Below are positions 1-64,000 of a DNA stretch of 64,000 nt, one piece after another. The DNA lies in the IMG/VR virus record IMGVR_UViG_2799112320_000001, positions 3,606-67,605 of that record. One strand, 5' to 3'. Under the pieces are notes generated by a model that saw only the letters and a program-made list of their open reading frames with translations, did no database searches and had not been told where the DNA came from. Origin of the DNA: a virus (Duplodnaviria; Caudoviricetes). Every line of letters begins with the position of its first letter. Positions within the stretch are counted from its first letter, which is position 1. Position numbers and translations under genes: made by a program.

Positions 1-724
1 CAAAAGCAAATCCTGTAACAGACATCTTGAACTGAAACTCGGAATTAGTGGCACCTGTGGCAGTCACCCCCGTATCAATATACTGCGTCCCGGTGCTCTC
101 GATGTACTCCACTGACACGACGTCCGGCCCGAGCACGAAGTCTCCCGTGCCCGCGTTGCCGAACAGCGCGCCCGACACGCGGTCGTACAGATACCCGACT
201 TGGCCCACGCGAACGGGGATGAAGTCGCGGACGAGGGTCGCTCCCTCGTAAATCCGGAAGGCGTAGATACGCCCGCTTATATACCCCGAGTTGCGGTATC
301 TAACGCAGATGCAGATTTGCCCCGTATTTTGCGCGAACGATGTGTAGGACGGCGTGGCAACCGTTGTTCCGTCGATAACCACTCCGCCCTTGCTGAAATC
401 TAGCGTGAACACGCGCCCGACGGCGTTTGTCACGGGTACTGTACTCCAGCCCCTACCGCCGCCAAAAAGGTATTCGACGCGGCTGGAACTATAACTGTTG
501 AACACAAAACCGTTTGAACGCTCGGCGCTTCCAGCAATCGAGCCGCCGAACCAGTTTCTGTTGCCTGTGGAAATCGTCATCAAGGTCGCATTTACGCGGG
601 TGTTCTCGGTCGCGTAGACGCCAGTCTCTAGATACTGCGTCCCTGTGGATTCGATGTACTCCACCTTGGCGTCGTAGGGTAGCCGCTTCCTCGTCATCAG
701 CGCGTTGCGTAGGTTTATCAGCAT
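1..724 (-). CDS. Tail-associated protein with repeated VEYIESTGTQY(L/I)(E/D)TG domain, runs off the left edge
   Basis: Translated by hand (not in the ORF track): MLINLRNALMTRKRLPYDAKVEYIESTGTQYLETG...RDFIPVRVGQVGYLYDRVSGALFGNAGTG...VEYIESTGTQYIDTG. Open to position 1 and directly follows the 729..1244 gene. Confidence 0.8.
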   Translation of the reverse strand, partial: MLINLRNALMTRKRLPYDAKVEYIESTGTQYLETGVYATENTRVNATLMTISTGNRNWFGGSIAGSAERSNGFVFNSYSSSRVEYLFGGGRGWSTVPVTNAVGRVFTLDFSKGGVVIDGTTVATPSYTSFAQNTGQICICVRYRNSGYISGRIYAFRIYEGATLVRDFIPVRVGQVGYLYDRVSGALFGNAGTGDFVLGPDVVSVEYIESTGTQYIDTGVTATGATNSEFQFKMSVTGFAF

Positions 725-43722: not shown

Positions 43723-44955
43723 ATGGAGTTAGCCATGTTTCGTTCAAAACGCGAGGTCCTTTCATCCATCAGGGAACACAAGTTCACCAAGGGCGGGAAA
43801 GAGTATACCATATTCTCGGCCTTCTTGGGAAGGGATCCGATATCGAACAAAGGCAAGCGCGTCGCTCGCTCCGACAAGAACGAGCTCAGGCAGTACATCT
43901 CAGACTTTTACACCCGGCTCGACAAGGGTGGAGACAACGCCGTGCAGCTGGATCATGCGCAGTCCGCGGACGCCCACGCCGCATACGGGCTCATGGCGCA
44001 GTTCGGGCTGCAGATGACCCTTGCCGACGTGGTGCGCGCATACGCGACGCAGAAGGCGTACGGCGAACTTAAAGGCGACTGCAAGACGTCCGTGGGCGAA
44101 GCCTGGCACAGATACTCCGGCACTCTGTGGACCAAGAGCGAGGCCTACCGCAAGTGCGTGACGAGCCGAATAGGCGCCTGGGTGCATTGCTTCGGCGAGA
44201 ACCGGCTCCTGTCCGAAGTCTCAGCCTCGGAGCTGAAGGAATACCTCATGGACAAAGTCTTCCGACCGGAAAAGCCGGACACGGCGAAGACCTACAACAA
44301 CGTCCTTGGCGACATCAAGACGTTCATCCACTGGTGCTGCGCGAAGGAACAGGACCTTCTGGCGGTCGATCCTCTCGACGGCATGAAGAAGATGGAAATC
44401 GGGTACCGCCAGCCGGAATACATGAAGGCGGCGGATGTGGAGAAGTTGTTCCGCGTACTCGAGGCGCGCAAGGAGAAGCGGCCGGAAAACCTGGCCGACG
44501 CGATCCTGTCGTTCTTCTGCGGCGTCAGGCAGTGCGAGATAGCGCGCGTCCGAGAAGGCGAGAGCGCAGTGAAAATCAGCCTGGAGGACCACTTCATCCG
44601 CATAGTGAAGGTCAAGGGCTCGCTCCGCGGCATCCGCCCCCGCGCGTTCAAGATACCAGCGCAGGCCGAGGCATGGATGCGCTCGTTCGACTTCATGGCC
44701 GCAGTGCAGATCCCCAACACGGCGTTCCGCTACCACCTGAACATGGCCGCGAAGAAAGCCGGTATAAAGATGCCGAAGAACGCCGGGCGCCACACCTTCA
44801 TAACGATGTACGAGGCGGCACACCACGACACCAATGCGCTCTCCGGCATAGTCGGCAACACCGAAGGCGTCCGGTCGCGCTCCTACAACGGCGTCGAGCT
44901 GGAGCGCGAGGGACGGGCCTACTTCGAGATTATGCCTACTTCTTCGGCCTCATGA
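43723..44955 (+). CDS. int: Tyrosine integrase
   Basis: FCGVRQCEI (R), VK (K), AGRHTF (xxRH), GN...RSRSY (Y). Confidence 0.93.
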   Translation: MELAMFRSKREVLSSIREHKFTKGGKEYTIFSAFLGRDPISNKGKRVARSDKNELRQYISDFYTRLDKGGDNAVQLDHAQSADAHAAYGLMAQFGLQMTLADVVRAYATQKAYGELKGDCKTSVGEAWHRYSGTLWTKSEAYRKCVTSRIGAWVHCFGENRLLSEVSASELKEYLMDKVFRPEKPDTAKTYNNVLGDIKTFIHWCCAKEQDLLAVDPLDGMKKMEIGYRQPEYMKAADVEKLFRVLEARKEKRPENLADAILSFFCGVRQCEIARVREGESAVKISLEDHFIRIVKVKGSLRGIRPRAFKIPAQAEAWMRSFDFMAAVQIPNTAFRYHLNMAAKKAGIKMPKNAGRHTFITMYEAAHHDTNALSGIVGNTEGVRSRSYNGVELEREGRAYFEIMPTSSAS

Positions 44956-47900
44956 GGTCTATGACCTGCTGCTGGTAGCGAAGGCGCGTCTTCTCGTACT
45001 TCTTCTTGGTGGCCTCCGAGGGGTTGCGCTTCCTCACCCAGCGGCCGCCTTCGCGCTCTTCGCCGTCCTCCCAGTGGCGCAGCGTCCTGATGTCGTTCAG
45101 GAGCTTCCTGATCTTCTCGTCGCGGCGCGAGCCGGCCTTGATCGTGCCATCGGCGCGGTCCACCTTGTAGCGGCGCTCCGCCTCGTAGAAGTTGTGCGCA
45201 TTGTCCGGTACGTCGCGCACATAGTCGCGCCAGAAGGGGATATGCGAATTGTCGAGGTCCTTGCCCTCCTTCAGGTCCGTCACGAAGTCCGACACAGTCG
45301 TTATGTCGCGGCCCAGGTTCTTCAACGCCGAGTCCACTACGAACTTGTAGTTCTCGGGGGAGTAGTCAAACCACCCACGGCGCCTCTCGTTGCCGCCCGT
45401 GAGCTTGTTCATCCCGCGCGCCATGGACTTCCAGACGTCGCCGGTCTGCTTGCGCCCGTTCTCGGAGTACGGTTTCGTCTCTGAGAACATCTGCTTGCGG
45501 ATCGGACGCCCGGCGTAGTCCTCGTTGCCCTTCAGCTGATAGAACGGCACCAGAAGCGTCGGAAGGAGCGACTGTACAGGCGTATCGCTGTTGAAGTCTC
45601 CAGTGCCGGTGAAGTGCATCCCGGAGTCAAGCGCCTCCTTGCCGATATGCTTTGCCGCATCCGCCCCGGAAATGTCACCGAGCGCCGCCCGCGCCGCGAG
45701 GTTGCCGGCGTACTTCAACACCGAGAACGGCCCAGCGTGGAACGGCACGCGGATGAACTTGTCCCCCATGCGGAAGTAGAGGGAGTTCGCCCGCTGGAAC
45801 TCCGTCATGGTCTCGCCCGACGGCTCGCCGCTCTTCCTGGCCTTCTTGTCGTCGTCTGCGTTGAAGAAGTGCTCGGCCATCGCCTCCATGACGCCGTAGG
45901 TGAAAAGCGCCATAGCCAACTGGCGGCCATGCTTGCCCGTGGCAAGGGACGCCGTCTGGCGGATCGCGCCGCCTATGACCGAGCCGGAGAACATCCATGC
46001 CGAGTTCATCCAGCGCTGGTTGCCGTACTTGTTGAAGTCGGTCGAGTATTCGCGCGAACGCATCGCCGCCTCGCCGTCCGAGGCGCCGCCGTCAATGTAG
46101 TCCTTGAACACAGCAAGGCGCGTCGCAAGCTCGCCCTGCTTGTTGATCTCGGAGATGCCGCGCCCGACGAACCGCAGTACGTCCATGACGCCGTGTTTGC
46201 CCGAGGCCACCTTGCCGAGGTCGTTCTTCAGCTCCGTGTAGCCCTCGTTGCCCATGCCGCCAATCGACGCGCCCGACTCGACGTAGCGGCGCATGACGTC
46301 GGCATAAGGCCCCTCGAACTTGCCGGTCTTGATGTACTTGCGGATCGTCCCCGCCATACGCACAGCGTTCGCGACGTTCCTCACGGCGGACACGCCGCCG
46401 CGGATGACACCCTTGTCGGCCATCGTATTCAGGGACGCCTCGAGCATGTCGGCGGCGAAGTTGCGCCCAAGGAACGCCGGCGAAAGCTCCGTCGCCGTGG
46501 AAGCGTAGCCGCGGGTAAAAGCCGCCACGGGTTTCCACATATTCTGGACCCCGCGTCCAATGACGGCCTCCGCAACGCGCTCGCCCTGTTTGCCGTTCAG
46601 CTCGATCATGTAGAGGTTGCCGCCCTCCTTGAATGCCACGAGGTTCGGACGCCCCGAGCCGCCCTTCACGGTCTGCTCGTGGTAGTTGGGATCCGGGAAG
46701 TCCTCGATCTGCTTGTGCGTGAAGCTCCATGCCTTGCCGCGGCGGACACCCTTGCGTACCTTGCCTACGCCCGGCGTGGAGCGCACGAAGTCCGCCAGGA
46801 CGCGACGGGCCTCGTTGATGTTCGAGCCATACATCGCGTCCTGGTACTCCTTGAACATGAACTCCACGGGGTTGTCTGGCAGCGTGTAGCGCCCGTTCGC
46901 CTCCTTGAAGTCGCTTCTGCGCCACTGCCGCGTGGAGCGGTTGTATTCGCCGCCCTCGTCGGAGAGGTCGTCGCGCATCGGGACGTGGAACGGCTCCTCC
47001 TTGCGCCACTGGTCCGCCGTCTCGCGGGCGACGCGCCCGGATTCGACGCGGCGCTCCATGCCCTCGTCCTGCATCTTCCAGAGGAAATTAGCCATCTCCT
47101 CGATCTTGGCAACCTTGTCGGCACCGAGATGCGAACGGAGGTCGGAGAGTATCTTCGCCGCGTCGGCGTCCGAAAGGCCCGCGCCGTCAAGCGTGCCCGA
47201 GCGCTCCATCACCTTGCGATTGCGGTCTTTCGCATTCGTGGCGATCATGTACATGCCGACGTCGTCAACGGTCGCGCCGGACTTGCGGAGCATGTCCTCG
47301 AAGGGGCGCTTCCATATCTTCTCGTAGCGCTGGCGCGCCGCCTCGTTGTGGCCGTGCAGAAGACGCATGGCGTTGTACGGCGAGTTCTCGGCGTACAGGT
47401 CCTTCTTGTCGCGTCTGCCGGTGGCGATTTCCATCTTCTTGATGGGGTCGTAGCGGTCGGCGAGTTCCGTTTTCGCCTTCTCCGCGATGGTCGTCTTGCG
47501 GTCCGCCGCGGGGGCGACGGGCTCCGGCTCCTTCGGCTCGCCGTCGGGGCGGATGCGCGCGCGGTTCGCGTCGTCGATCTGCGTCATGTCCTCGGCGACG
47601 TTGTGGCGGTCGGCGGTCTCCCAGGGGGCCGTCTTGCCGCGCTCCTCGGCGGACATCCTGGCGCGCGTGGCGGCCTGGCGGGCCTCCCACTCGCCGTGTT
47701 CCTGCGTGTAGCGCCCGAACGACTTGCCGTCGGTGTTCGTGCCGCCGGCCATGCCGGACGCCGCCTGTATGCGGTGCTGGAGCTCGTGGTTCAGCGTCTC
47801 GGCGGTCGTGCCGCGCTCGTAGAGGTGTATCTTCCCCTTCGTCGCGTAGCCGAGCGTGCCGTCCTTCGGCTGCTCCGCCTTGCGGTCAACCTCGATCGTC

Positions 47901-50900
47901 TCCTTGCCGAGCCTCGGGTAGGCGGCGAGGAGTGTCTTGACGGAATCCGGCAGGCGCTCGCCCTTCGCCTTCATCGCGGCCTCAAGGTCGTTGAGCGTGA
48001 AGGAGTAGGTGTTCGCCCTGTCCCTGTCGTAGAACTTGCCGGACGCAAGCGCGAAGTCGAGCATGCGCTTCGTGTCGGCGTCGCTGATGCCGGCGATCTC
48101 GTAGCGCCACTTGCCGTCCTTCGCCCTCCACCAGCCGGTCTTCTCCCAGATTTCGCGGCGCCCCGCTCCGGCGCCCTCCATGCGCTCCGCCTCGTCGCGG
48201 CCCTTCGCGTGGACGCGCCGCCCGGCCTCCTCGTCGATGTTGAAGAACCGAAGGTTGCCCGTGTCGCCGATCTTCTCGTCGTCGCGGTAGAGGTTTGCCG
48301 GGTGCTTCTCGATGATCTTCCGCAGTTTCGCCGCGTCGGGCTCCATGAAGATGCGCTTCTTGGAGACCTCGCCCCCGAGCTCCTTTGCCACGGCGTCTAT
48401 TTGCCCCGGCTCCACTCCGCGCACCATCACCTTCTTCGCGCCGTCACGCGGCACCTGCTTGAGCGTCCAGCCATTCACAAGGTCAACCGTGCGGTTGTTC
48501 AGCACCTCGCGAACCTTGCCGTCGATCACCATGTCCCGCGCCTCCTGGGCCTTGCCGAAGCGCCCGAAGACGGCGGGTATCTCGTCCGTGTCGATCTTCG
48601 CGCCGATGTACTCTGGCGCGTCGCCCGCCTTGACGCGGAACGTTCGCGGTGGCTTGGAGCCGAGGACGTCGTTCCAGTGCTTCAGGAGGTCTCCCGTCGC
48701 GTAGAAGCCGTCGTCCGCCCTCTCCTCGGGTATGACGCCGTACTCCGCGTCCCAGAGCTCCTTCGCCTTCGCCGTATCAAGTTTCTCGTATGCGGCATTC
48801 GGCTTCTCCGTATCGAGTATGGACGCCTTCATGCGCTTCTTCGTGCCGTCCACGGCAAAGCGCATCGCGGCAGGCTCCTGGCGCTTGCCCATCTTGCCGT
48901 CGGCGCGGACGGCGAACGTCTCGCCGGTGCGCTTGTTGCGGACGTATGTCAGGAACTCCGCCGCATGGTCGCGCGCGAAGTCGTCGAACGGGACCTTGTC
49001 GGTCTTGAACCACGAGTTGACGTGCTGCACGTCCATGTCGTCGGCGAGCTTCACCGAGCGAACGGCGTCGTTGTGCGTGGAGCCGATGTCCTGGAGCCCG
49101 ATGTCGTACTCGCCGTCCTCCTTCGCCCAGCGGATGTTCTGGTCGAGGAGGTTCTTGAACGCCGTGAACATGCCGTCCTGCTTCTTCGGGTCCAGCATGA
49201 GAAGCCGGTTGAGGAATCGCTTGGCGGAGACGTCGGGGACGGTTGCCCCGCTCTTGTCGCGCTTGAGCATCCCGTTCACCTCAACCACGGAGCCGTCGGG
49301 GCGCTGCACGCGCTTCACAAAGTTCATGTCGCGCGCGATGTCGTCGAGCTTGCCCATCTTGTGGAGCATGGCGATAATCTGATCCACGGCCTGCTGCGCG
49401 TACTTCGTTTCGAAGTTGTCGCCTTCGCTCGTTATGCCGTTGCCGGTCGCGGCGCGGTCGCCTGTCGTAAGCGCCTTCATCTGGCCGCGGCGGCGCTCCA
49501 CCGAGGAGTAGAAGCGCCTCTCTCCCGGGAGGTCCGTCGTGCTCGTCACGTATATCGGCGCATTCGCCTGGTTGTTGCGGTGGACGCGCCCGAGGGTCTG
49601 CTCAAGCTCGTCAGCGCGGTAGCCCAGCTGAAGCGGGAACGCCACGCGGCGCGCTTGGTTCTTGTACTTGCGGTCGGACGAGAACGTGTATCCCGTGTTC
49701 GCCACGCCGGAGAAGACAAGCACCTTCTTGTCGCCGTTCTGGAACGCGCGGTAGTCCTCGGCCATGCCGCCCTTGTTGAGCCCGGTGAGGTTCGCCACGT
49801 TGTCCTTGCCAAAGGCGTCGATTATCATGTTGATCGGGTTGCCGAAGGTGTCCGGCAGCTTCTCCACCTCGCGGACGAGCCGCCTGCGGATGCCGTCGGC
49901 AATCGGGTCGCGCTCGAACCCCACGACTTCACCGCTCTGGTCCTTGACCGGCTTCATCGTCGGGAACTGGTAGTCCTTGTACGCACCCTCCTGCTTCTGG
50001 TAGGTCTTGTCCCCCTCCTTCGTGAGGAAGTCCAGGAGAATCTGCTTCGGGCCGAAGTTGACTTCGTCCATGCCGAGCTGACGCCCCTCTTCGAGCGCCT
50101 TGGCAACCTCGCGCGTCGATCCCGCCTCGTTCGTGTTGACGAGCGAGAACACCGGCGCGTTGCCCTTGGCGAGCTCCTTCTTGGCGCGTTCGATGAGCGC
50201 CGGGATCTTGAGCGCCGTCACCATTGAGTAGTGGAGTCGCTGCTGCATACCGTGGAGCGACGACGGCGGCACGGTGTAGTCCAGCCGCCCGAGGACCTCA
50301 AGCGCGTCGTACACGCCCCGGTAGACGTCCGAGAGCGCGTGATTGTACTCCGTATAGGTCCGCTTCTGCGCTTCCGTCGTGGGTACGGCGACATGGTCGA
50401 ACTCAACACCCTCCTTCGAGAGGTTTGCCGAGAGGTACTGCCCGCGGCGCTTCAGCGTCTGGGCGACCATCTCCATTGCGGAGACGCCCTTGCCCTCGAC
50501 CTTCTTCTTGAAGTCCTCGAAGTCCTTGAACGGCGTGCCCTCGCCCCAAAGCCCGAGGCGCGTGGCGTAGCCGAGGTTGCCGACGTCCGTTGCGCCGGTC
50601 GCCGACATGTAGATTACGCGCGCCTTCGGCAGAAGCTCCTGGAGCTTCACTACGGCGTCCTGCGTGCGCCCGCCCTCCGTCTTGGCGCGGTGAATCTCGT
50701 CGAACGCGATGACGCCGTCGAAGTCCTTGCCGAGCTCATTGGCGATCTTCTCGACAACGCCTTCGTTGCGGATGTCGGAGTAGGTCGTGAATCCGATGCC
50801 GTCCTTCGGCATGGGCTTGTCGCCGATGTCCTCCACCAGCCCTTCCATGCCGAACGGCTTCACCTCGCTGCGGACGTCGTCGATGAGGCCGCGCTGCGTG

Positions 50901-53900
50901 GTTATCCACAGCGCCCTCTTGCGCCCGCGCCAGCGGTTGTCCAGGATGGTGCCCGCGATCATGCGGCTCTTGCCGGCGCCCGTGCCGTACCCGCCCATCA
51001 TGCCGAGCGGCGAGCCGTTTGCGTCCTTCATCCCGTGGGCACGCCCCGCGTAGCCGACGAACTCGAGCTGGTGCTCCTGCAGGTCGCCGTTCTTGATGTG
51101 CTTCTCGGGGATCATCAGCTTGTACTTGTTGTCCGGCGGCTCCGTCGCCCGGAGCGCAGGCGGCTCCTCAAGGAGCGTGCGGCTCTTCACCGCGCCCGGC
51201 ACCTTGTACTTCGCTGGGGCATACTGGCGCTTGTCGAAGTCTCCCGCCTCCTCGGCCTTGTCGAAGAAGCGCGTGCCCTGATCGGCCTCTCCCGCGCGGA
51301 TCGCGTCCCGCTCCGCCTGTGTGAGCCCGCGGTTGACTAGGCCCTCGTCGTGGAGCGCCGAAAGCGACATCTTCATGTCCTCGACCTTGGTCGGGGCGTA
51401 GCGGTTCGCGCCCGGCGTCTTCACGCGCACGGTGGCCGTGCCGTCGCCGTTGTCCTGCAGGAACGTAGCCTCGCGCATGTTGCCGGCGGCGTTCTTGAAC
51501 ATGACGACCTGACCGCGCTCGAAGGCGGGTTTCGCCGGAGCCGCTTCCGTCGCGGGGATGGTCCTGTTGAACAGGTCCTCGCCCTCCGCTCCGCCGAGAT
51601 CGAGCAGCCCCTGCCCCGTCTCCATGCTGCCGCCCTTCAGAGGCGCGTCCATGCGGCGCTGAAGCGCCTCGCGCTCACGCAGCCTCCGGGCTTCGTCGTT
51701 TATCTGGCCTTGCGTCACGCTCTCCAGCGCGAAGTCAGGCCGTGCGGGAGTCTCGCCTTCCTTCGGCGCGGACGGCTCCATGCCGAGGTCCTTCTCCATC
51801 TGCGCCCGCAGGTCGGGGTCGAGGTTGATGGACTCCCAGCGCATCTTTTCGAGTGTGGCCTTGTCGATGGCCTTCTGGAGCTCCGCCTCCTTCGCCTTGC
51901 CGCCTTCCGCGATCTTGCGCTCGTTGATGCCGAGGGCGCGCATGTCCTCGCGGAGTATCTTCTTCTTCACAAGGTCGTTCTCGCGCGAACGCTGGACCTC
52001 GCGGAGGCTCTTGGCAAGCCGCGAATACTTCGCCGCCTGTTCCGAGCGGTACTTCTCGGCCTTCTCGGCCGCCTTCTCCACGGTGTCGTCGCCAAAGAAG
52101 TCGAACGCCATCTGCTCGACGCCGTCCGCCTCCCTCTTCATGGCCGCCAGGTGCTTGGCCTCGCTGGCCTTGATGCCGAGGTCGCGCCTGTCCAAGGTGG
52201 GGTCGCGCAGGACGGACTTCAACAAATAACGCTGGAGGTCGGCGTTCGCCTTCCCTTCGCCGATCGGCGCAATCTCCGCTATCGCGGCCGCCTGTTCCGG
52301 CTTTATCTTGCCCTCTACGCGCCCGCCCTCGAAGTTGACGGAGGCGCGAAGGTCTTCCGTGGCGTCGTTGGCGATGGCGTATGCCTGCCGCGCTTCCTTC
52401 GATCCGAGGAAGCCCTCGCGCTCCGCCTCGGCGCGCGGAATCTTGACGTCGCCGAAGAACGCCACGTAGTCCTCTGTCGAGCCCTTGCTGTCCTGGATGT
52501 TGTCCAAGGCGTCGAGGAGCCGGATTTTCGTGAAGTCGTAGGTGCCGTCGGGCTTCTTCGTCACCCAGCCATCGGCCTCGCGCACGCGGCGCATGGGTAT
52601 GTCCATGCCGTAGCGCTCGTAAAGCTCCTTCCTGTGCCGCCCGGTGCCGACGGACACCGTGCCGTCCTCGAACTCCACGCCGAGGATCGGCTTGGAGAGA
52701 AGCGAACGGGGACGTCCCTTCAGCTCGTTCCCGGGGACGATGCCCGTCTTCGGGTCGGCCGCAAGCTTGGTGTTGGGCACGCGGGCGTCGCTGCTGTCCA
52801 GCTTCGCCGCCGGGTACATCTCCACGTCGATGTCCTGAAGCGCCGCCTGGAGCGCGTTGATGCCGGAAATGTCCCGCACGTTGCGCCCCTCGTCCGCGCT
52901 CCTGATGGCGTCCCGCGCCTCGTAGTCGCCCACGCGGTCGAAAAGGCCCGTGGTCTCCGCGGCGTAATTCCACAGGCGGCGCAGTCCGTCCTTCTGCTCG
53001 GCGTACCAGGCGGGGTTCGCCGCCTTGAACATCTTGGCAAAGTCGTAGAATCCGCGGATCTTCTTCTGGTCGTACAGGGCGGCAATGTCCCGCACCAACT
53101 CCCAGTTCTTGTCGCGGCGGTCCGAGCCCAGTTCCTCGTTCACGTCGAAGAACTTCGCCGAGGGGTCCGTAAGCCCCCAGCGGCTCATTATGTCGCGGAT
53201 ATCCCGAGACTCGCCGCCAGACGGCGAATTTCGACCCTCCGCGCCCTCCGCGCGTTCGGGACGGGTCATCGCACCCTCCGCGCCAGCCTCGCTCCTAGGG
53301 GCTTCTACAGGCGTTTCCTGGGGCATGTCGCCAAAAAGGCCTGCAAGCGCGTCCTCCGCAGCCCTTACGCCGTCGCCCAAGCGCCCTTCGTTGGCGTGGT
53401 GGACTACCACTCCCTCGCTCGGCGCTTCTGCTCCCTCCGGCTCTGCTTCCACAGGTCGCGGCGCTTCCCCGCCTTCCTGTCGCCCAGAAGCCCCTTGTTC
53501 GGGTTGCGCCGGTGCTTCATCGGCTCTACGCCCTGCCTCATCTGCGGTCTCCTTTCTTGCCTGCTCCTCGACCCGGACGAGTTCAGCCTCCATAGCCTTC
53601 TCCGCCTCCTTGCCGTAGGGCAGTCCAAAATGGTCGTGTATCTGGCGCCGCACGGCACGGATAGCGGCCATGCCGTCCTTCTTTGGCTTCGTGGTGGACG
53701 CAATAAGCGTCTCCGTGCCGTCGTTTGCGACTGCGTTGACATCCCAGCCAATGACCTTGCCGTTGCCGTCGGTGACGCGCCGGGCGACGATCTGGTTGCC
53801 GTTCGGTCCGTAGCTGGCCCGAAGGACATCGCCTTGCGATGAAGTGCGTTCCTTGCCCTGGGGCGCCTCCGGCTCCACGGCTATGCGCGGAAGGACGCTT

Positions 53901-56900
53901 GCGTTGTCCTCGGCCTCACGGCGCTTCCGCTCCTCCTCGGCGCGGTCGAACTTCTCGGCCCTCCTTGCGTCGTCCTCGCGAAGCGCCTCCTTGACGGCGT
54001 TTTTGCGGTCTAGGCGCGCCTGTGCGTCCGCCGCCTCATAGCCCGCCCTCCTCTGCGCCTCGCGCTCCTGGGCCCGATTTTCGCGCTCCTGCGCCGCGCG
54101 AACTGCCTCCGCTTCGGCGTTCTCCTTGGCTATCGCCCTCTCCCGCGCCCTGCGCTCGGTGATTTCGCGGCGGCGGCGCTGGTACTCCTCGCGCTTCGCC
54201 ATGTCGGACTCGCGCTCCTCGGCGTCGATGAGCTGCTGGAGCTCCGCCTCGTCCCGCGCGTCCTGCTCCTCCCTGCGCTCGCGCTCGATACGCTGGCGCT
54301 CCTGCTCTTCGTAGTCTGCAGCTTCCTGGCGCTGCCTTGCTCGCTCTTCTTGGCCTCTGCGGGTTGCCGCGCGGCGGTCGCGCTCTTCGCCGATCTGATC
54401 CGCGAACTCTTTTTCAGCCGCCCTGAATCCAACCCTGTGACCCGTGCGGGCAGCGTCAACTTCGCCCTGCAATCGTTCGGCGCTCGCGCTGTCAGGAAGT
54501 GCGCGGAGCGTCGGCGTCGGGGGATTCGGCGGCTCGGGCTCGTAGTAGAAGTTCCCGCCAGTCTGCTCGGCAAGCTTGTTCATCGCGCCCCGGTACACCT
54601 CCTCCGCCTCCGAGCGGCTGTACGAGAGACCATTGAACACCTTGCGGAGATTGCGCCGCAGGACGTTCACATGCTCGTCCCACCAGCCGGGCTCATCCGG
54701 GACGTCTTCGCGGTCAAAGAGGTGCGCGTACACTTCCTCCAGCGCGTTGGCGTGGAGATAGTTGCCATCCTTGTCGCGCTTGAATATCTCCTCGGGGCGC
54801 TCGATTTCGCCACGCGCCATCCGCGCCCCGACGATGCGGTTCAACTGATTCTGCACAACGGGGTCCCCGCTACGAGCAAGCCCCGCGACGAAGCCGATCT
54901 TGTCGGCAGGCGTTTCAAATGCCACATCAAGTCCGCGATGACGCCCCGCCTCGTGTAGGACGTTGCGTTTCATCTGCTGCGGCGTCTCCATTCGGTCGAG
55001 GCAGTACACTGTCGTACCGTCAGGAAGCGTAACGGCTTGTTCGCCGGGCGACGACCTGTGGGGTCTGCCAGTACCCTCGGAAACAATCTTGTCGAACTCC
55101 GCCCCGTCCTTCGCGGCATAGAAGTCCACTCCTCCGAGCCTGTACTGGTCGCGAAAGTTCTTGAGAGCCGCCGCCTTGGCATCGCGCTCCGAGGCGGTCT
55201 TCTGTCCGAGTCTGCTCATGGCGTTCGCTGCCTCAAAGGCATCCTCCGCGCCGTAGCGGGTCGCCCTGCGCCCGTTGCCGTCCTCCACGAGGTATATGCT
55301 CCTCCCGTCGGCCTTCGACGCGTCCAGCGGCCACTTCGTGACGGATATGCCAGTGTTGGCGTCCGTGAAGGTCTTGCCTGCTATGCTCACTCCGTCGCCA
55401 ACAGGAATTTCCACGTCCTGCCATGCCACTTCGCTTGTAGTCCGCATCTTGCCGTTTTCGTCCGGCTTGCCGAGCGTCAAGGTTCTGGGAACCCTGAACT
55501 GCGACTGGAACGATCCCGCATTGGAGCGTTCCCATCCCGCCGAGTTGTCAAACTGGAGGGCATACTTCCCGGCCTGCTCGAACGCCTGGCCGGCCTCCAT
55601 GCCAAGCTTCTTGCCAACTTTGTCGCACCAATTGCGCAGACGCTCCTCGAAGGTCCCCTTCTCCGTGACCTCTCCATTGACGACGCGAACCCTGTCGTAC
55701 CGTTCGCCCTTGAAGTTTCTGCCGTGCTGTTGCTCGCGGCGCAGCGTCCTTGCGCCGTCCACGTCGCCGCCAAAGGCATCCTCGCCGCTGTACAGCCTGT
55801 CGCCGATGCGAACAAGCCAGCGCTTTAGGTCCGGATTCATCTGGTCCAACTGCTCCTGTGGTATCTTGAACGCCCCCTGGAGCCGACGGTCGTATGAGGC
55901 CTTTTGGGCGCGAGCGTCGCGCCAGGTCCTCATGCCCGCAGTTCCGGCCTGGAAGAGCATCACGCCGAGCGCGCCGACAAACAGGTCAGTCTGTCCCTTG
56001 AGCGAGAGCACGCCAGGGACGTGCGTCCCATCCGGCAGATCCTCGCCGTTGGTGAACTTATCCCACTCCTTCGAAAGCCCCTCGTACTCGGAGTCCTTCT
56101 TGCCGTAGCCGAGCACCTGGTCCTTGAAGGTGTTGAGGTCCATGAGGGCGAGCATCTGCGGCTGTCCGCGCAGACCCGTGAGCTGTCCGTACTTCACATA
56201 GTTCTCGTACAGCCCCTTCACGGCAGGAGCGGCCTTCCGCGCCCATGCGGCATCCGCCCCGCGGAGACCCTTTATAGACTTGCCGATTACGCCGGGCGCC
56301 CAGCCGAACGCCGCCTCGCCGATTGGAAGCGAGAATATCGCCGCCTCGCCGAAACCGCCCTTCGCCGCCTTGGCGAGAGCCTTCTCGGGATCGTCGCCCG
56401 GAATCACCTCCAACTCACCTGTTTCGGGGTTCTGATGGTATTCCGGCGCCGTCAGCTCCTTGTAGCGGCGGCGCGTCATCTCGGCGCCCATAACCGGCGT
56501 CATCCACGCGGAATGCGCCAGCCCCGCAACCACGCGTCCGCGCCATGTAGCCTGAACCGCCTTGGCGCCGATGCCGAGGGCCTTGCCCGCCGCGCCGGTA
56601 AGAGCGAACTCCTCCATCATCGGGATCATGCCGAGGGTGCCGCCGCCGACCTTGCCCCAGAAACCCTCTTCGCCGGCCGCGGCCATGCGCCTCTGCGCCT
56701 CGCCCTTCTTCGCCGCGCGCTCGCCGAACCTGGCGCGTGCGATGTTGGCGAAGTATTCGTTCATCTTCTCGGCGTCGCCCTGCGAGTATTCGCGGGCCTT
56801 CTCGATGTCCGCTTCGCTTATGCGGGCGTCGCGCGCGTAGTTCTCCAGCACGTCCGTCATGTACTCGGCGGTCGCCATCCGCGCAGCGCCGCGCACGCCC

Positions 56901-57364
56901 TCCACGGCAAGACCGACAACCGGAAGATTCGTGGCCACGGCGGACGCCCGGCTTGTGTCCTCTGCGCTGGCGTCCTTGGCCTTGTAGCCCCGTAGCATGT
57001 AGTTCGTCTGGAGGAGACGCCTGTCCTCGGCGTCGCGCAGCGCGGAGCGATCCAGAAATGCGGCAAGGTTCCTATCCTCGGTGAGGTCCATGCCCTCTCG
57101 CGTGGCTCGGACGCCGGGGAGCAGGCCTTCCGCATAGACTTGCCCTGCCGACGCGTCACGGCCCGTCCGCGCCGTGATCTCGTCCTGCCGGCGCTCCGTG
57201 AAGCCGTAGTTGGAGTCAGAATTTTGCCTATTTGCGCCGTCCGTGGCGTCGCTGCGTTCTGCCTCGTCGGCAAAAAGTGAAGTGTAGCCATCGCCGATCG
57301 CGGAACGAATACCAGTATCAACGGGTTCCGCCTCGTCGGCAAAGAGCGAAGAATACTCTGCCAT
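44936..57364 (-). CDS. 4142-aa large polyvalent virion/ejection protein with Strawberry-notch helicase, zincin-like motifs, LPD23- and LPD38-like regions
   Basis: GYGTGAGKS, FDEIHRAK, YMSATGATD, QTLGRVHRNNQ, GERRFYSSV; HEAGRH and HELQH motifs; IWEKTGWWRAKDGKWRYEI; C-terminal DYAGRPIR. Confidence 0.88.
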   Translation of the reverse strand: MAEYSSLFADEAEPVDTGIRSAIGDGYTSLFADEAERSDATDGANRQNSDSNYGFTERRQDEITARTGRDASAGQVYAEGLLPGVRATREGMDLTEDRNLAAFLDRSALRDAEDRRLLQTNYMLRGYKAKDASAEDTSRASAVATNLPVVGLAVEGVRGAARMATAEYMTDVLENYARDARISEADIEKAREYSQGDAEKMNEYFANIARARFGERAAKKGEAQRRMAAAGEEGFWGKVGGGTLGMIPMMEEFALTGAAGKALGIGAKAVQATWRGRVVAGLAHSAWMTPVMGAEMTRRRYKELTAPEYHQNPETGELEVIPGDDPEKALAKAAKGGFGEAAIFSLPIGEAAFGWAPGVIGKSIKGLRGADAAWARKAAPAVKGLYENYVKYGQLTGLRGQPQMLALMDLNTFKDQVLGYGKKDSEYEGLSKEWDKFTNGEDLPDGTHVPGVLSLKGQTDLFVGALGVMLFQAGTAGMRTWRDARAQKASYDRRLQGAFKIPQEQLDQMNPDLKRWLVRIGDRLYSGEDAFGGDVDGARTLRREQQHGRNFKGERYDRVRVVNGEVTEKGTFEERLRNWCDKVGKKLGMEAGQAFEQAGKYALQFDNSAGWERSNAGSFQSQFRVPRTLTLGKPDENGKMRTTSEVAWQDVEIPVGDGVSIAGKTFTDANTGISVTKWPLDASKADGRSIYLVEDGNGRRATRYGAEDAFEAANAMSRLGQKTASERDAKAAALKNFRDQYRLGGVDFYAAKDGAEFDKIVSEGTGRPHRSSPGEQAVTLPDGTTVYCLDRMETPQQMKRNVLHEAGRHRGLDVAFETPADKIGFVAGLARSGDPVVQNQLNRIVGARMARGEIERPEEIFKRDKDGNYLHANALEEVYAHLFDREDVPDEPGWWDEHVNVLRRNLRKVFNGLSYSRSEAEEVYRGAMNKLAEQTGGNFYYEPEPPNPPTPTLRALPDSASAERLQGEVDAARTGHRVGFRAAEKEFADQIGEERDRRAATRRGQEERARQRQEAADYEEQERQRIERERREEQDARDEAELQQLIDAEERESDMAKREEYQRRRREITERRARERAIAKENAEAEAVRAAQERENRAQEREAQRRAGYEAADAQARLDRKNAVKEALREDDARRAEKFDRAEEERKRREAEDNASVLPRIAVEPEAPQGKERTSSQGDVLRASYGPNGNQIVARRVTDGNGKVIGWDVNAVANDGTETLIASTTKPKKDGMAAIRAVRRQIHDHFGLPYGKEAEKAMEAELVRVEEQARKETADEAGRRADEAPAQPEQGASGRQEGGEAPRPVEAEPEGAEAPSEGVVVHHANEGRLGDGVRAAEDALAGLFGDMPQETPVEAPRSEAGAEGAMTRPERAEGAEGRNSPSGGESRDIRDIMSRWGLTDPSAKFFDVNEELGSDRRDKNWELVRDIAALYDQKKIRGFYDFAKMFKAANPAWYAEQKDGLRRLWNYAAETTGLFDRVGDYEARDAIRSADEGRNVRDISGINALQAALQDIDVEMYPAAKLDSSDARVPNTKLAADPKTGIVPGNELKGRPRSLLSKPILGVEFEDGTVSVGTGRHRKELYERYGMDIPMRRVREADGWVTKKPDGTYDFTKIRLLDALDNIQDSKGSTEDYVAFFGDVKIPRAEAEREGFLGSKEARQAYAIANDATEDLRASVNFEGGRVEGKIKPEQAAAIAEIAPIGEGKANADLQRYLLKSVLRDPTLDRRDLGIKASEAKHLAAMKREADGVEQMAFDFFGDDTVEKAAEKAEKYRSEQAAKYSRLAKSLREVQRSRENDLVKKKILREDMRALGINERKIAEGGKAKEAELQKAIDKATLEKMRWESINLDPDLRAQMEKDLGMEPSAPKEGETPARPDFALESVTQGQINDEARRLREREALQRRMDAPLKGGSMETGQGLLDLGGAEGEDLFNRTIPATEAAPAKPAFERGQVVMFKNAAGNMREATFLQDNGDGTATVRVKTPGANRYAPTKVEDMKMSLSALHDEGLVNRGLTQAERDAIRAGEADQGTRFFDKAEEAGDFDKRQYAPAKYKVPGAVKSRTLLEEPPALRATEPPDNKYKLMIPEKHIKNGDLQEHQLEFVGYAGRAHGMKDANGSPLGMMGGYGTGAGKSRMIAGTILDNRWRGRKRALWITTQRGLIDDVRSEVKPFGMEGLVEDIGDKPMPKDGIGFTTYSDIRNEGVVEKIANELGKDFDGVIAFDEIHRAKTEGGRTQDAVVKLQELLPKARVIYMSATGATDVGNLGYATRLGLWGEGTPFKDFEDFKKKVEGKGVSAMEMVAQTLKRRGQYLSANLSKEGVEFDHVAVPTTEAQKRTYTEYNHALSDVYRGVYDALEVLGRLDYTVPPSSLHGMQQRLHYSMVTALKIPALIERAKKELAKGNAPVFSLVNTNEAGSTREVAKALEEGRQLGMDEVNFGPKQILLDFLTKEGDKTYQKQEGAYKDYQFPTMKPVKDQSGEVVGFERDPIADGIRRRLVREVEKLPDTFGNPINMIIDAFGKDNVANLTGLNKGGMAEDYRAFQNGDKKVLVFSGVANTGYTFSSDRKYKNQARRVAFPLQLGYRADELEQTLGRVHRNNQANAPIYVTSTTDLPGERRFYSSVERRRGQMKALTTGDRAATGNGITSEGDNFETKYAQQAVDQIIAMLHKMGKLDDIARDMNFVKRVQRPDGSVVEVNGMLKRDKSGATVPDVSAKRFLNRLLMLDPKKQDGMFTAFKNLLDQNIRWAKEDGEYDIGLQDIGSTHNDAVRSVKLADDMDVQHVNSWFKTDKVPFDDFARDHAAEFLTYVRNKRTGETFAVRADGKMGKRQEPAAMRFAVDGTKKRMKASILDTEKPNAAYEKLDTAKAKELWDAEYGVIPEERADDGFYATGDLLKHWNDVLGSKPPRTFRVKAGDAPEYIGAKIDTDEIPAVFGRFGKAQEARDMVIDGKVREVLNNRTVDLVNGWTLKQVPRDGAKKVMVRGVEPGQIDAVAKELGGEVSKKRIFMEPDAAKLRKIIEKHPANLYRDDEKIGDTGNLRFFNIDEEAGRRVHAKGRDEAERMEGAGAGRREIWEKTGWWRAKDGKWRYEIAGISDADTKRMLDFALASGKFYDRDRANTYSFTLNDLEAAMKAKGERLPDSVKTLLAAYPRLGKETIEVDRKAEQPKDGTLGYATKGKIHLYERGTTAETLNHELQHRIQAASGMAGGTNTDGKSFGRYTQEHGEWEARQAATRARMSAEERGKTAPWETADRHNVAEDMTQIDDANRARIRPDGEPKEPEPVAPAADRKTTIAEKAKTELADRYDPIKKMEIATGRRDKKDLYAENSPYNAMRLLHGHNEAARQRYEKIWKRPFEDMLRKSGATVDDVGMYMIATNAKDRNRKVMERSGTLDGAGLSDADAAKILSDLRSHLGADKVAKIEEMANFLWKMQDEGMERRVESGRVARETADQWRKEEPFHVPMRDDLSDEGGEYNRSTRQWRRSDFKEANGRYTLPDNPVEFMFKEYQDAMYGSNINEARRVLADFVRSTPGVGKVRKGVRRGKAWSFTHKQIEDFPDPNYHEQTVKGGSGRPNLVAFKEGGNLYMIELNGKQGERVAEAVIGRGVQNMWKPVAAFTRGYASTATELSPAFLGRNFAADMLEASLNTMADKGVIRGGVSAVRNVANAVRMAGTIRKYIKTGKFEGPYADVMRRYVESGASIGGMGNEGYTELKNDLGKVASGKHGVMDVLRFVGRGISEINKQGELATRLAVFKDYIDGGASDGEAAMRSREYSTDFNKYGNQRWMNSAWMFSGSVIGGAIRQTASLATGKHGRQLAMALFTYGVMEAMAEHFFNADDDKKARKSGEPSGETMTEFQRANSLYFRMGDKFIRVPFHAGPFSVLKYAGNLAARAALGDISGADAAKHIGKEALDSGMHFTGTGDFNSDTPVQSLLPTLLVPFYQLKGNEDYAGRPIRKQMFSETKPYSENGRKQTGDVWKSMARGMNKLTGGNERRRGWFDYSPENYKFVVDSALKNLGRDITTVSDFVTDLKEGKDLDNSHIPFWRDYVRDVPDNAHNFYEAERRYKVDRADGTIKAGSRRDEKIRKLLNDIRTLRHWEDGEEREGGRWVRKRNPSEATKKKYEKTRLRYQQQVIDLMRPKK

Positions 57365-60558: not shown

Positions 60559-63528
60559 TCATACCACAAGCCCTCCCATTGAAGTGCCCACGAGGAGCGC
60601 GTCAACTTCCGAGTCGGCCACGACCTCCACCTGCATGTACCGCTCCATGCGCCGTACCGGGAGACGCCGCGCGTCCTGGTCGGCGATGTTGGAGAGCGTG
60701 ACGTGCGCCGTAGGGCGGGCGTCGGCGTCAGGCGCGGAGAACATGTCCACCGTAAGGTCAAGAAGCCTGGCAGGGCGGTATCCGCGCGCGTCCACTCGGC
60801 AAGCGGACGGGTTGAACGGCTTGGACGCCTCGTAGGTCTTCGAGCGCCACACCATCGTCTTGTTCTCGTCCGAGCCCTCCCACTCGCAGATGGCGTTGCG
60901 GTCGAGAACGAAGCGCGCGTAGTACGCCGTCTCGCCGTAGACCGTGAAGGTGAAGCTCTCGCTTGTGGAGATGGGTATAAACACGGTCGGATTCTGCGAG
61001 TCGTACCAGCCGTCGAACCTGTAGCCGTTGCGAGCGCGCGCGTGGACGGTGACATCGGAGCCTAACGGAACGCTCGTAAGCGCCGTAGTGGTCTCACCGC
61101 CTATGACCGTGTCTCCACTGATCCTCGTTATCCACACGTTACCCGAATGCTCTCCGCTGTCGTTCGTGGCGTCCACCGTGACGTCCACTTCGCCGTCCTC
61201 CACATAGCGGACAAAGAACACCTTGTTCTCGTTCGTCAGGATGTCCAGCGCCAAGGCCTGCGAAAGCGGATTTGCCGCGGGATGGTATGTTACGACATTG
61301 TTGTTTACTTCCTTGATGGCTTCAAACCATCCGTAGAAATAGAGTGTGCCGTCGTTTGTCTCGACGGTGTTCTGCGCGGTGGCGCGCACCGTCTTGGTGC
61401 CGACAAAGTGCTCTTCGCAGGTGTTGCCTGGCTCCTCCTCGGCTTCCGGCTGCGCGCCGCCGCCAAGCTCTGATGCGCTCGCCGCCTGCTGCTCTGCTTC
61501 CCCTATAAAGGTTATGAAGTCGTCGCCGATGTTCAGCGGGGTGTCCCCTGTCGAACCGCTCAGGGCATGGACCGTTATTTTGCGATCCAATGCGGAGTCC
61601 GCCAGTATCGTCGCCGTCGCGGTTACTGCCGCATCCACGTAGATTGTCCCTTTGGTGCTGAGCGGAAGTATCGTCGCGCCGGACCTCCACGCATCTAGCC
61701 CGTAGCCGCCGTCTATCGCCAGTTCGTAGGCGATGGTCGTGCCGACCACAAGCGTCTCGTTGTACACGCCGCCCGCGCACTCCGTGCCGTCCACGAACAG
61801 CGCGGCGTGGTCCGTGCTGTTCAAGGACAGGCTCACCGCCGCCGCCGCCTTCGCGACGAGGGAGATCGGCGCGGTGACGTTGGATACGGCGTATTCGGCG
61901 TTTGACGAAACGAAGTTGTCCTCGGTATCGTACCACCCTGCGAAAGAGTAGCCCGCGGCGGGAACAGCGGTAAAAGTCACGCTGCCGCCGTATGCCACGC
62001 TCGCCGGAGAGACGGAAGAAGATGTTATCGCGGTCGCGCTCGCTGCGTCCTTCACCGCAGTGCAGGCAAACGTCTGCGTGGACACGACGGGGACGATGAC
62101 CGTATCGCCCGTCACGACAAGCTCAAAGGTGCACGGCTCGGACGGCGTGTCGTTCGTGAAGCCGCCCTGGCTCACGCCGTTTACCGATATGCCGCCGCCG
62201 TCGAGGAGCTTTCCGGCGCGCGGCGTCGCCGTCACCGCGACGTGCGTCCCGTAGGTCCAGTACGCGACCTCGCCGATCGTCGTCGCCGCCGCTGGTTCAA
62301 CCGAGAGGTCCACCACGTCCGCGCCGCCGACCTGCGCCGCCGTTATGGTGTGCAGAGTCCGCCACTGCGCGTACAGGGTGACTGTCGCACCGTCCTCCGC
62401 CGTGAGGTTGATGACCGTCGCGCCGTCAGCGTATGCCGTCCCCAAGCCGTCCGCCGCGGTGTTCCAGCCGACGAACAGGCTTCCCGTCTTGGCGTAAGTA
62501 CAGGCGGGAAGCGAAGCGGAAACGTCGTATGTCGCGGAGACGGACTGCATCGCCGCCCCCGTTCCGGTGTTGGCGCCGAACGCGATCGTGTAGGAGTTTG
62601 CGGACCACTGCGCGTAGACAGTGGCGTTCGCGGAGGGATTGATGGTGTCGCCGGCCCCGCCGACACGCGTACCGCCCGACCGCGCCGTGTACCAGCCGAG
62701 GAACGTGTAGCCCGTGCGGACAGGAAGGGGCAGCACCACGGCGGCTTCCACGCCGCCGCTCGCAGAGTCGGGCGAGACCGTGCCGCCATTGGCATCAAAG
62801 GTGTATGTGTACAGAATTTCCTCGTACGCTGCCTCCGCCTCCACGTCCTGCCTATAGCCTGTCTTGACATATAGACACCGATTGTCAGCACCTGCCACAT
62901 ATACGCTGTCGCTGGACGATGTAGACGTGACCTTGCTTCCGTTTACATACCATCCCGCAAACCTATATCCGCTCTTCGGCGGCGAAGCCCAGATGGAGCT
63001 CTGCGTATTGGCTCCGTGGACATTATAAACTATAGCGCTGGTGTTTGAGTAAAAATAATTCGACTCGAATACGAGCGACGTGGTTCCGTAGTCCCACCGC
63101 GAAGGCTTAGCGAAAGATATGGTGCCATAACTAGGGTTGTTTGTGCTTGCGCTGCGCGTCCAGTAGTCGCACGAGACTTGGCTGGTGCCGAACGTCTGGC
63201 TTGTGTTGCTCACGCCGCCATAATAATAGGAGTCACCGGAAACGGCCGCCCTCTTCCAAACGCCATGTCCGACAAGCGCACTCGCCTGTGCCGCCGTTTG
63301 CGGCGACTCGGACGGGCGACCTTCTCCGATGTAGAAACATTCGTTTCCCTTTAAATTTGCAAACTGTCCGCCTTCGGCATCGAGGCAGTTCGTTGTAACG
63401 TTGTGGCCTGCGCCGTCATTCCAGGTCAGCGAAGACGGATTCAGGACGTAATCCCAGCGGCAGTACGAAGTATAGCCTGTAGTACCCGTGCGCTGTATAA
63501 AAGTGCCGTATACCGTTACGCTCTCCAT
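60559..63528 (-). CDS. Tail protein: InlB/Listeria-Bacteroides-type repeats fused to the C-terminal piece of the tail nozzle
   Basis: YTFDANGG...PVRTGYTFLGWY...VYAQW repeats plus several GY.F.GWY repeats; ends ICEWEG...WRSKTY...RRLP...EV...TSMGGL. Confidence 0.8.
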   Translation of the reverse strand: MESVTVYGTFIQRTGTTGYTSYCRWDYVLNPSSLTWNDGAGHNVTTNCLDAEGGQFANLKGNECFYIGEGRPSESPQTAAQASALVGHGVWKRAAVSGDSYYYGGVSNTSQTFGTSQVSCDYWTRSASTNNPSYGTISFAKPSRWDYGTTSLVFESNYFYSNTSAIVYNVHGANTQSSIWASPPKSGYRFAGWYVNGSKVTSTSSSDSVYVAGADNRCLYVKTGYRQDVEAEAAYEEILYTYTFDANGGTVSPDSASGGVEAAVVLPLPVRTGYTFLGWYTARSGGTRVGGAGDTINPSANATVYAQWSANSYTIAFGANTGTGAAMQSVSATYDVSASLPACTYAKTGSLFVGWNTAADGLGTAYADGATVINLTAEDGATVTLYAQWRTLHTITAAQVGGADVVDLSVEPAAATTIGEVAYWTYGTHVAVTATPRAGKLLDGGGISVNGVSQGGFTNDTPSEPCTFELVVTGDTVIVPVVSTQTFACTAVKDAASATAITSSSVSPASVAYGGSVTFTAVPAAGYSFAGWYDTEDNFVSSNAEYAVSNVTAPISLVAKAAAAVSLSLNSTDHAALFVDGTECAGGVYNETLVVGTTIAYELAIDGGYGLDAWRSGATILPLSTKGTIYVDAAVTATATILADSALDRKITVHALSGSTGDTPLNIGDDFITFIGEAEQQAASASELGGGAQPEAEEEPGNTCEEHFVGTKTVRATAQNTVETNDGTLYFYGWFEAIKEVNNNVVTYHPAANPLSQALALDILTNENKVFFVRYVEDGEVDVTVDATNDSGEHSGNVWITRISGDTVIGGETTTALTSVPLGSDVTVHARARNGYRFDGWYDSQNPTVFIPISTSESFTFTVYGETAYYARFVLDRNAICEWEGSDENKTMVWRSKTYEASKPFNPSACRVDARGYRPARLLDLTVDMFSAPDADARPTAHVTLSNIADQDARRLPVRRMERYMQVEVVADSEVDALLVGTSMGGLVV

Positions 63529-63529
63529 C

Positions 63530-64000
63530 CTACCTCACCTCCCTCACGTAGTACATCCTGTCCTCGGCGTTGTCCGTGCAGAGGCACCGCGCCGCCTCGT
63601 CGTGCGTGGTGACGGCTATCGTCGGCCCGTCCAGCAGGTCTATCGTCAGCCCCACGTGCGTGGTCTGCGACATGTGCAGCGTGCCGTCCGGGTCGATGAA
63701 CGAAAGCGTGTACACCGTCCCCTCCGGCGCGGTGAAGAACATGAAGAGCGCGCCGTCGAATTGCCCCATGATGCACGACTTCGGATTGAGCGCGAGCCAC
63801 TGGTCCTTCGTGAACATCTTGTCCGTGAGGTTCGCGCACACGGTCCCGGAGTCCGCCGAGTTCTGGATCGTCATGAGCCCCGCGTTCGACACATAGTACA
63901 CGGCGTTCCTGTAGACGCACACACCGCGCGGGGAGACGCACGCCGCAGGCCCCGCGAGCTTCGCCACGGACATGGACTCCGGCGCGGTCCCCGAAAGAAC
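63530..64000 (-). CDS. Tail nozzle / tubular protein B-like, N-terminal part (starts beyond the window)
   Basis: VLSGTAPESMSVAKL...ACVSPRGV...YYVSNAGL...TKDQWLALNP...TDNAEDRMYYV; open at the right edge. Confidence 0.75.
   Translation of the reverse strand, partial: VLSGTAPESMSVAKLAGPAACVSPRGVCVYRNAVYYVSNAGLMTIQNSADSGTVCANLTDKMFTKDQWLALNPKSCIMGQFDGALFMFFTAPEGTVYTLSFIDPDGTLHMSQTTHVGLTIDLLDGPTIAVTTHDEAARCLCTDNAEDRMYYVREVR

Follow-up and report, generated by a model that had tools for sequence, protein, structure and literature searches.

The nozzle locus and its gene junction

The stretch of DNA analysed here (the window) comprises 64,000 nucleotides (nt) and represents most of a circular phage contig (G000:C187:3606-67605), which carries at its far end, on the minus strand, two adjacent genes whose products seem to build the tail nozzle together. 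The nozzle-base gene, whose product we refer to as the N-piece, enters the window with its 3' part, namely the last 156 codons and the stop codon (63530..64000), and runs past the window across the circular contig junction to C187:1110, giving a full product (P0210) of 493 amino acids (aa). It is followed by an open reading frame (ORF) of 989 aa (60559-63528), in which three parts can be told apart on the same strand: a hypervariable head of low predicted confidence and lower G+C content (residues ~1-175; 63004..63528), a stalk composed of about eight small β-domains, some of them of the Flg_new / InlB B-repeat type (residues ~177-877; 60898..63003), and a C-piece (residues ~878-989 and the stop codon; 60559..60897), which according to its profile and fold matches would supply the last propeller strand(s) and part of the C-terminal platform of a nozzle.

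The junction between the two genes, which on the minus strand reads ...ATG TAC TAC GTG AGG GAG GTG AGG TAG g ATG GAG AGC..., has the layout of a coupled junction (63526..63546). The upstream ORF terminates in ...DNAEDRMYYVREVR-TAG, with the stop codon at 63532-63530; the last codons of this gene encode the Shine-Dalgarno-like element AGGGAGGTGAGG of the second gene (63544-63533), whose ATG (63528-63526) follows the stop after a spacer of a single G (63529). The second protein ends in ...ICEWEG...WRSKTY...RRLP...TSMGGLVV. A preliminary description of this DNA, made from the letters alone, had pointed out the upstream stop, the Shine-Dalgarno-led ORF one base further on and the ICEWEG...TSMGGL end, and all of these can be read directly in the sequence.

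Proteins identical to P0210 and to the 989-aa protein occur on 8-9 contigs of the public collection, and the adjacent gene pair, in which the second gene has its own Shine-Dalgarno element and start, was found in 22 loci reaching down to 40% N-piece identity. At each of the 22 related junctions the Shine-Dalgarno element is encoded by VRE(G/E) codons and followed by a stop codon and, after a short gap or within a short overlap, by a start codon. The second ORF lies in the +1 frame relative to the first at 17 of the 22 (the two ORFs being 1 or 4 nt apart or overlapping by 8, 14 or 17 nt), while the frame relation is 0 in L015 and +2 in L023, L026, L027, L028 and L029, intact full-length pairs being among these. 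The last sense codon is AGG, GGG, GTG, GAA, GCG or GAG and the stop TAG, TGA or TAA, which amounts to three frame relations and six different last sense codons. The enrichment of the +1 frame may reflect shared ancestry or a constraint that arises from encoding the Shine-Dalgarno element in the VRE(G/E) codons.

Two explanations of this junction compete with a genuine pair of genes. According to one of them, programmed recoding, by a +1 frameshift or by bypass at AGG TAG G, would produce a single-chain nozzle with a large internal insertion. The +1 relation at 17 junctions, among them that of the window and those of its closer relatives, is in line with such an event, and so is the Shine-Dalgarno-like element just upstream of the stop, as an element of this kind is involved in prfB frameshifting. 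The frame relation is not conserved, however, no conserved slippery codon precedes the stop, the stop codon itself varies, each downstream gene has its own start at Shine-Dalgarno distance, and no fused protein occurs among 87 + 150 + 120 clusters. The variation in frame among relatives makes a family-wide recoded single chain unlikely, and together with that in stop and last sense codon it shows that the family as a whole has no conserved frameshift or readthrough. The preliminary description had ranked recoding as the lesser possibility; we consider it very improbable. The other explanation, by which a simple fusion gene appears split through a sequencing mistake, faulty assembly or a recent pseudogenising mutation, has the closeness of the two ORFs in its favour and nothing further, whereas identical proteins are found on 8-9 independent contigs, the same break recurs in the 22 related loci and in ~120 N-piece clusters at 50-80% identity, and both pieces are evidently constrained, with the C-piece retaining 52-75% identity among homologues. 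Because stop and restart are conserved at all 22 junctions, an assembly error is excluded, and judged by the comparative sequence data this explanation can be taken as refuted, with hardly any probability left to it.

Two chains in place of one nozzle polypeptide

The assignment of both proteins to one nozzle family is based on profile and fold comparisons that agree with each other. The N-piece covers positions 318-656 (E value 3.6e-47) and 628-754 (E value 2.4e-22, the match of the part inside the window) of the profile phrog_511, positions 750-856 are matched by the C-terminal ~113 aa of the 989-aa protein (E value 2.9e-10), and the two pieces are thereby contiguous, 318-754 and 750-856, in a single profile. 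Likewise, a profile of 100-odd N-pieces reaches residue 422 of Bcep22 gp67, while the C-piece profile begins at residue 427. PHROG 511 is a nozzle family. A phmmer match to 8jov_A was obtained with an E value of 1.5e-23, 8JOV chain A is a protein of 577 aa that is present in six copies in the GP4 portal-tail complex, and Bcep22 gp67 (580 aa) is nearly identical to it in length and sequence. In addition, phi24B gp57 has been called a hexameric nozzle related to that of GP4 (preprint 10.64898/2026.04.10.717836).

The AlphaFold2 model of the N-piece (predicted local distance difference test score, pLDDT, 90.8; predicted template modelling score 0.88) has its best fold match in 8jov_A (Foldseek E value 3.4e-20), and residues 2..491 superpose on residues 2..422 of this chain with a VIA-align Z of 31.2 and a root-mean-square deviation (rmsd) of 3.3 Å over 358 residues. 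The nozzles of Pa223, P22 (gp10), Sf6 (gp8), SU10, VP1, Carin-1 and crAss001 are matched as well, with Z of 18-21, and the last 100-155 nozzle residues are always left uncovered (Pa223, 3..396 of 512 matched; P22 gp10, 2..357 of ~471; VP1, 1..394 of 521). With only residues 2..422 of the 577 of 8jov_A covered, the N-piece corresponds to a base without propeller-C and platform-C, as in a split nozzle of the A1002 type. In the model of the 989-aa protein (pLDDT 77.9 overall), residues 888..989 of the C-piece superpose on residues 434..576 of 8jov_A (Z 8.7, rmsd 1.8 Å, 88 residues) and also on the C-terminal ends of the Pa223 (405..507), VP1 (411..513) and SU10 nozzles, such that the solved chain is tiled without overlap, N-piece at 2..422 and C-piece at 434..576. 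The first strand of the C-piece (residues 880-885) is the sole low-confidence spot of that domain, as one would expect if this strand depends on the last strand of the base and was modelled without that partner.

The break can be placed precisely by comparison with homologues that continue across it. Bcep22 reads ...DITEGKLYL-CIGQD-IYEWDALDSENEILVWRSKQY... (KLYL-CIGQD-IYEW), and L035, an unsplit distant metagenomic homologue of 539 aa, reads DELFLA-LDDG-IYRW...WKSKRW, whereas the phage studied here has ...DNAEDRMYYVREVR and a stop, then 877 residues, and then ...NAICEWEGSDENKTMVWRSKTY.... As Bcep22 and L035 are continuous across the turn, the break stands in place of a β-hairpin turn of 4-5 residues in the single-chain homologues. 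The pattern D..D.LY...I.EW.G....WRSK.F, given in the preliminary description as one continuous segment of podovirus nozzles, is indeed uninterrupted in both of these proteins. The unsplit relatives that were found are all distant (Bcep22, Cimandef, GP4 and L035, at 27-29% identity). Instead of one polypeptide per subunit, we find here two ORFs separated by a stop and a 1-nt spacer, an interruption that is conserved in relatives, and the nozzle is therefore a split variant of its family. Thus, the two pieces taken end to end align contiguously and without overlap to uninterrupted nozzles, both by sequence and by predicted fold, and the initial proposal of a nozzle gene split into two chains is supported by their fit to phrog_511, Bcep22 gp67 and 8jov_A.

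Both pieces keep their places throughout the family. In 119 of 119 aligned N-piece clusters (50-80% identity) the protein ends in ...TTHDE..C.C.D...D.MYYVRE(G/E)x-stop, and none of these contains a C-piece. An exhaustive profile search for the C-piece yielded 280 representative clusters at 50% identity; in the best 150 of these, in which its position was examined, it forms the very C-terminal end of proteins that measure 68-2200 aa, none of which is fused to an N-piece. Candidates for fused forms, P0063 (1518 aa), P0086 (1509 aa), P0039 (1281 aa) and forms of 1560-2200 aa, have more repeats only and no N-piece, and P0147, P0133 and other proteins of ~590-690 aa that end in a C-piece, considered as unsplit nozzles, have no N-piece similarity. 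Searched with tblastn, the C-piece alone had no match in 50,697 phage records, and only two relatives were present in IMG/VR.

Among the stand-alone minimal C-pieces of 124-260 aa, P0128 was rejected, as its contig measures 527 bp and the gene call is most probably truncated. P0209 (134 aa, L041:518-922), on a 1.3-kb contig with an opposite-strand gene before it, may be a C-piece in minimal, stand-alone form, in which case the split would be able to exist with no stalk; it could equally be a remnant or the product of a rearrangement. On the side of the base, the homologues P0211, P0261, P0265, P0286, P0289, P0297, P0302, P0304, P0319 and P0321 are 535-566 aa long, and their best BLAST segment spans only ~55% of the query, which suggests an insertion of 50-70 aa, possibly a second variable site in the tip or in a propeller loop.

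Architecture and role of the appendage

The interpretation that we favour, with a probability of roughly 0.8, is that of a split nozzle in which two translationally coupled chains complete one subunit and in which the stalk is a probable monomeric fibre, most likely engaged in binding to the host surface or to glycans. The 493-aa base would account for the β-propeller, the tip and the N-terminal strands of the platform and would stop in the β-hairpin turn at the propeller end, while the 989-aa protein would add, at its C-terminal end, the strand(s) that the base lacks together with the domain of the C-terminal platform. By strand complementation in trans, each nozzle subunit would be completed by a C-piece, with the ICEWEG-side strand pairing with the last strand of the base. 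As the C-piece represents a part of the C-terminal platform, every nozzle subunit should need one, and with one copy of the second protein per subunit there would be six copies per virion, provided that this nozzle forms, like its homologues, a hexameric ring below the adaptor. Since the insert lies at the fibre-dock position, the stalk should project sideways, and six stalks, each a single chain with its N-terminal head distal, would extend laterally from the outer surface of the nozzle. The physical complementation, the copy number, the outward projection and the binding function are what we infer for the virion.

A structural precedent exists in the split nozzle of the Pseudomonas aeruginosa podophage A1002, solved by cryo-electron microscopy, which consists of the base gp42 and the rope gp39 (PLoS Biol, Nov 2026; PMC13730344). 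There, gp42 ends in fibre-dock-N, and gp39 has the order fibre dock, propeller-C and platform-C with its N-terminus distal (PMC13730344). Both systems share a two-chain nozzle with a base that lacks the last propeller strands and the C-terminal platform, and a second protein that gives propeller-C and platform-C at its C-terminus, here preceded by 877 residues, with the N-terminus outward. The break site is apparently the same, namely the fibre dock, when the domain maps of T7, SU10 and VP1 and the published residue ranges are used for the comparison. The two differ in lineage, the present phage being GP4/Bcep22/phi24B-like (A1002 was compared by its published description only), and in gene order, as the genes are adjacent and translationally coupled here while gp40 and gp41 intervene in A1002. 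Moreover, the closing piece is ~110 aa long here compared with ~150 aa in A1002, and in place of a rope of ~300 Å that binds fibre dimers there are predicted folded Flg_new/InlB-type β-domains and a hypervariable head.

Single-chain nozzles offer two further points of reference. GP4 (8JOV chain A, 577 aa), Bcep22 gp67 (580 aa) and phi24B gp57 are of the same family (PHROG 511) and fold and lie in the same gene neighbourhood, with the adaptor upstream and virion proteins and a giant polyvalent DarB-like protein downstream, but they have a hairpin turn of 4-5 residues where stop, restart and ~875 extra residues are found here. In T7 gp12 the fibre dock is found on the outer surface, after the end of the propeller (blade 1) and before the C-terminal platform (PMC6702177), and in SU10 gp17 the loop that docks the short fibre extends blade 1 close to the C-terminus (PMC9509320). 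These docks, which attach a fibre, occupy the same topological place as the insert; they differ from it in that a separate trimeric fibre binds a small dock non-covalently, whereas here the appendage and the closing part of the nozzle form one continuous covalent chain and the chain break is on the other side of the appendage. With these maps the preliminary description needs adjusting in some respects. The insert had been placed inside a propeller blade and its repeats on the tail tip; the break lies at the propeller end, at the outer-surface position of the fibre dock, and not at the tail tip. The C-piece had been taken for a docking tag, and while it does appear to serve as an anchor, it is also a part of the C-terminal platform. 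The same description had seen in the split an unusual route to a new appendage; as the 280 clusters and the A1002 structure make clear, this phage is not alone in having such a split.

The stalk had been described beforehand as part of ~875 aa of novel domain and InlB-type repeats, which the domain and fold searches confirm. Flg_new (PF09479) matches with an E value of 1.2e-32 (112.3 bits against a cut-off of 27) in 4 stretches, the best at residues 240-307, and Flg_new_2 (PF18998, divergent InlB B-repeat) with 4.2e-17 (62.3 bits against 23.6) in 3 stretches, the best at residues 809-874, both above the Pfam gathering scores. Residues 310-393 superpose on the Listeria InlB B-repeat 2y5p_C with Z of 8.5, and other stalk domains on Gram-positive pilin or adhesin domains with Z of 6-7; the pLDDT of the stalk is mostly 75-97, with an acidic low-confidence loop at residues 680-694. 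A Foldseek search with the whole 989-aa model was of no use as an identifier, as it returned generic multi-domain adhesins and pilins only. In contrast to bacterial InlB-repeat proteins, the repeats reside here in a protein of a phage virion, joined to a piece of the nozzle, and no leucine-rich-repeat internalin domain, signal peptide or cell-wall anchor was noted in the 989-aa protein. A literature search combining nozzle with Flg_new or InlB repeats found no paper on this design among those listed.

The head behaves differently from the rest of the protein. Its pLDDT is 35-60, searches against Pfam and PHROG gave no match, and its Atlas matches stay below 0.9 and point only to B-repeats. Only 3 of 87 homologues share it at >45% identity, the other heads being of many unrelated types. 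Among nine loci with both genes complete, the pairwise identities of N-piece and C-piece correlate (r 0.72), whereas head identity remains at a background of ~22% and shows practically no correlation with N-piece identity (r 0.07). A survey of relatives at the same site, one of the checks proposed at the outset, thus finds a conserved anchor with differing heads and lengths. In addition, the G+C content of the head is 0.54, compared with 0.61 for the window and 0.63-0.66 for stalk, anchor and base, which is consistent with recent acquisition by recombination.

That the stalk serves receptor binding has an alternative, which we consider unlikely, in which the split is real and the stalk is a scaffold for docking fibre subunits, a non-specific mucus or polysaccharide adhesin ('BAM'-type, immunoglobulin-like) or a brace to the capsid. 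Immunoglobulin-like and B-repeat domains of phages often mediate weak glycan adherence, and a separate fibre-like gene of 951 aa is present in this phage. The A1002 equivalent binds 11 fibre dimers and not the host, and the chain-like fibres of GP4 dock on the capsid (PMC13730344). The stalk model, on the other hand, is a string of folded domains and not an extended rope. Specific receptor recognition usually shows itself in a conserved anchor that bears hypervariable distal heads exchanged laterally, with the difference that the anchor is C-terminal here.

Some observations nevertheless weigh against the favoured interpretation of a split nozzle with a binding stalk. The match of the C-piece to 8JOV is of moderate strength (Z 8.7), and a PDB-wide profile search with a 5-sequence C-piece alignment placed it on 8jov_A at the right position but insignificantly (E value 1), so that the structural alignment was needed; the complementation in trans is deduced from homology. 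Regarding function, Pfam, PHROG, the AlphaFold2 model and Atlas identified no receptor-binding or enzymatic domain in the head, we know of no established ligand of Flg_new repeats, and, given that a separate 951-aa protein has weak tail-fibre and CBM_5_12 matches, the stalk need not be the primary receptor-binding protein.

More tentatively, and at somewhat less than even odds, the appendage may represent a new class of receptor-binding structure, namely monomeric, present in six copies per virion, of inverted polarity (C-terminal anchor, N-terminal head), built of adhesin B-repeats and held by completing the nozzle fold, in which the chain break permits the exchange of head-stalk cassettes and through which a radiation of gut and rumen phages, possibly of bacteria of the Planctomycetes-Verrucomicrobia-Chlamydiae (PVC) group, would be retargeted.

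Regardless of function, the arrangement is a real, widespread and well-conserved variant of the very recently described split nozzle, of which the prior solved case is one cultured phage, A1002. Nozzle splitting at the fibre-dock site, with the closing piece as obligatory anchor, would not be limited to one Pseudomonas phage, and the design is widespread and stable in a second podovirus lineage, with at least 280 clusters at 50% identity carrying the anchor. For these uncultured phages this might provide a sequence rule to find the host-recognition gene, that is, a protein ending in the ~110-aa piece ...EWEG..WRSKTY...RRLP..R.ERY.... Furthermore, a conserved anchor with cargo of a few hundred to >2000 residues suggests a natural display scaffold, and the tolerance of β-propeller and platform to fragment complementation during virion assembly becomes a testable question.

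The phage genome and its gene content

The first 99 b of the contig of 67,605 b are identical to its last 99 b, corresponding to a genome of ~67.5 kb, which is related to the phages GP4, Bcep22 and phi24B. The contig was binned with a metagenome-assembled genome of 5.2 Mb and carries an integrase gene (43723-44955, plus strand) as a marker gene of the phage; it probably represents the complete genome of a temperate or free phage and not a chromosomal prophage. The other markers are an SU10-type portal gene, an adaptor-like gene and the gene of a large polyvalent protein of 4142 aa (44936-57364, minus strand; AAA_34/Helicase_C_4 of the Strawberry-notch, Sno, type, LPD23 and LPD38), and with them the phage has the gene set found in T=9 podoviruses related to Bcep22, GP4 and phi24B.

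The 951-aa protein mentioned above (1244-4099, minus strand) has a weak tail-fibre match (phrog_6578, E value 4.7e-05) and a CBM_5_12 match below the cut-off (E value 9.7e-04), which makes it a candidate for a separate fibre or spike of the same virion. Relatives come from rumen and gut metagenomes, some of them in bins labelled Lentisphaerae or Kiritimatiellae; these labels hint at this host group without establishing it.

The adaptor-like gene lies directly upstream of the nozzle-base gene (SU10_adaptor, E value 1.8e-07). It encodes 112 aa (L003:1110-1448, minus strand), matches only the first ~37 of the 194 positions of the SU10_adaptor profile and is present in the same short form in the relative L007; the remainder of a canonical adaptor may be encoded elsewhere or be absent. 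The 4142-aa polyvalent protein is the counterpart of Bcep22 gp75 and phi24B gp47, and the polyvalent proteins of relatives carry other cargo domains, such as RadC, Zeta toxin and ART-PolyVal.

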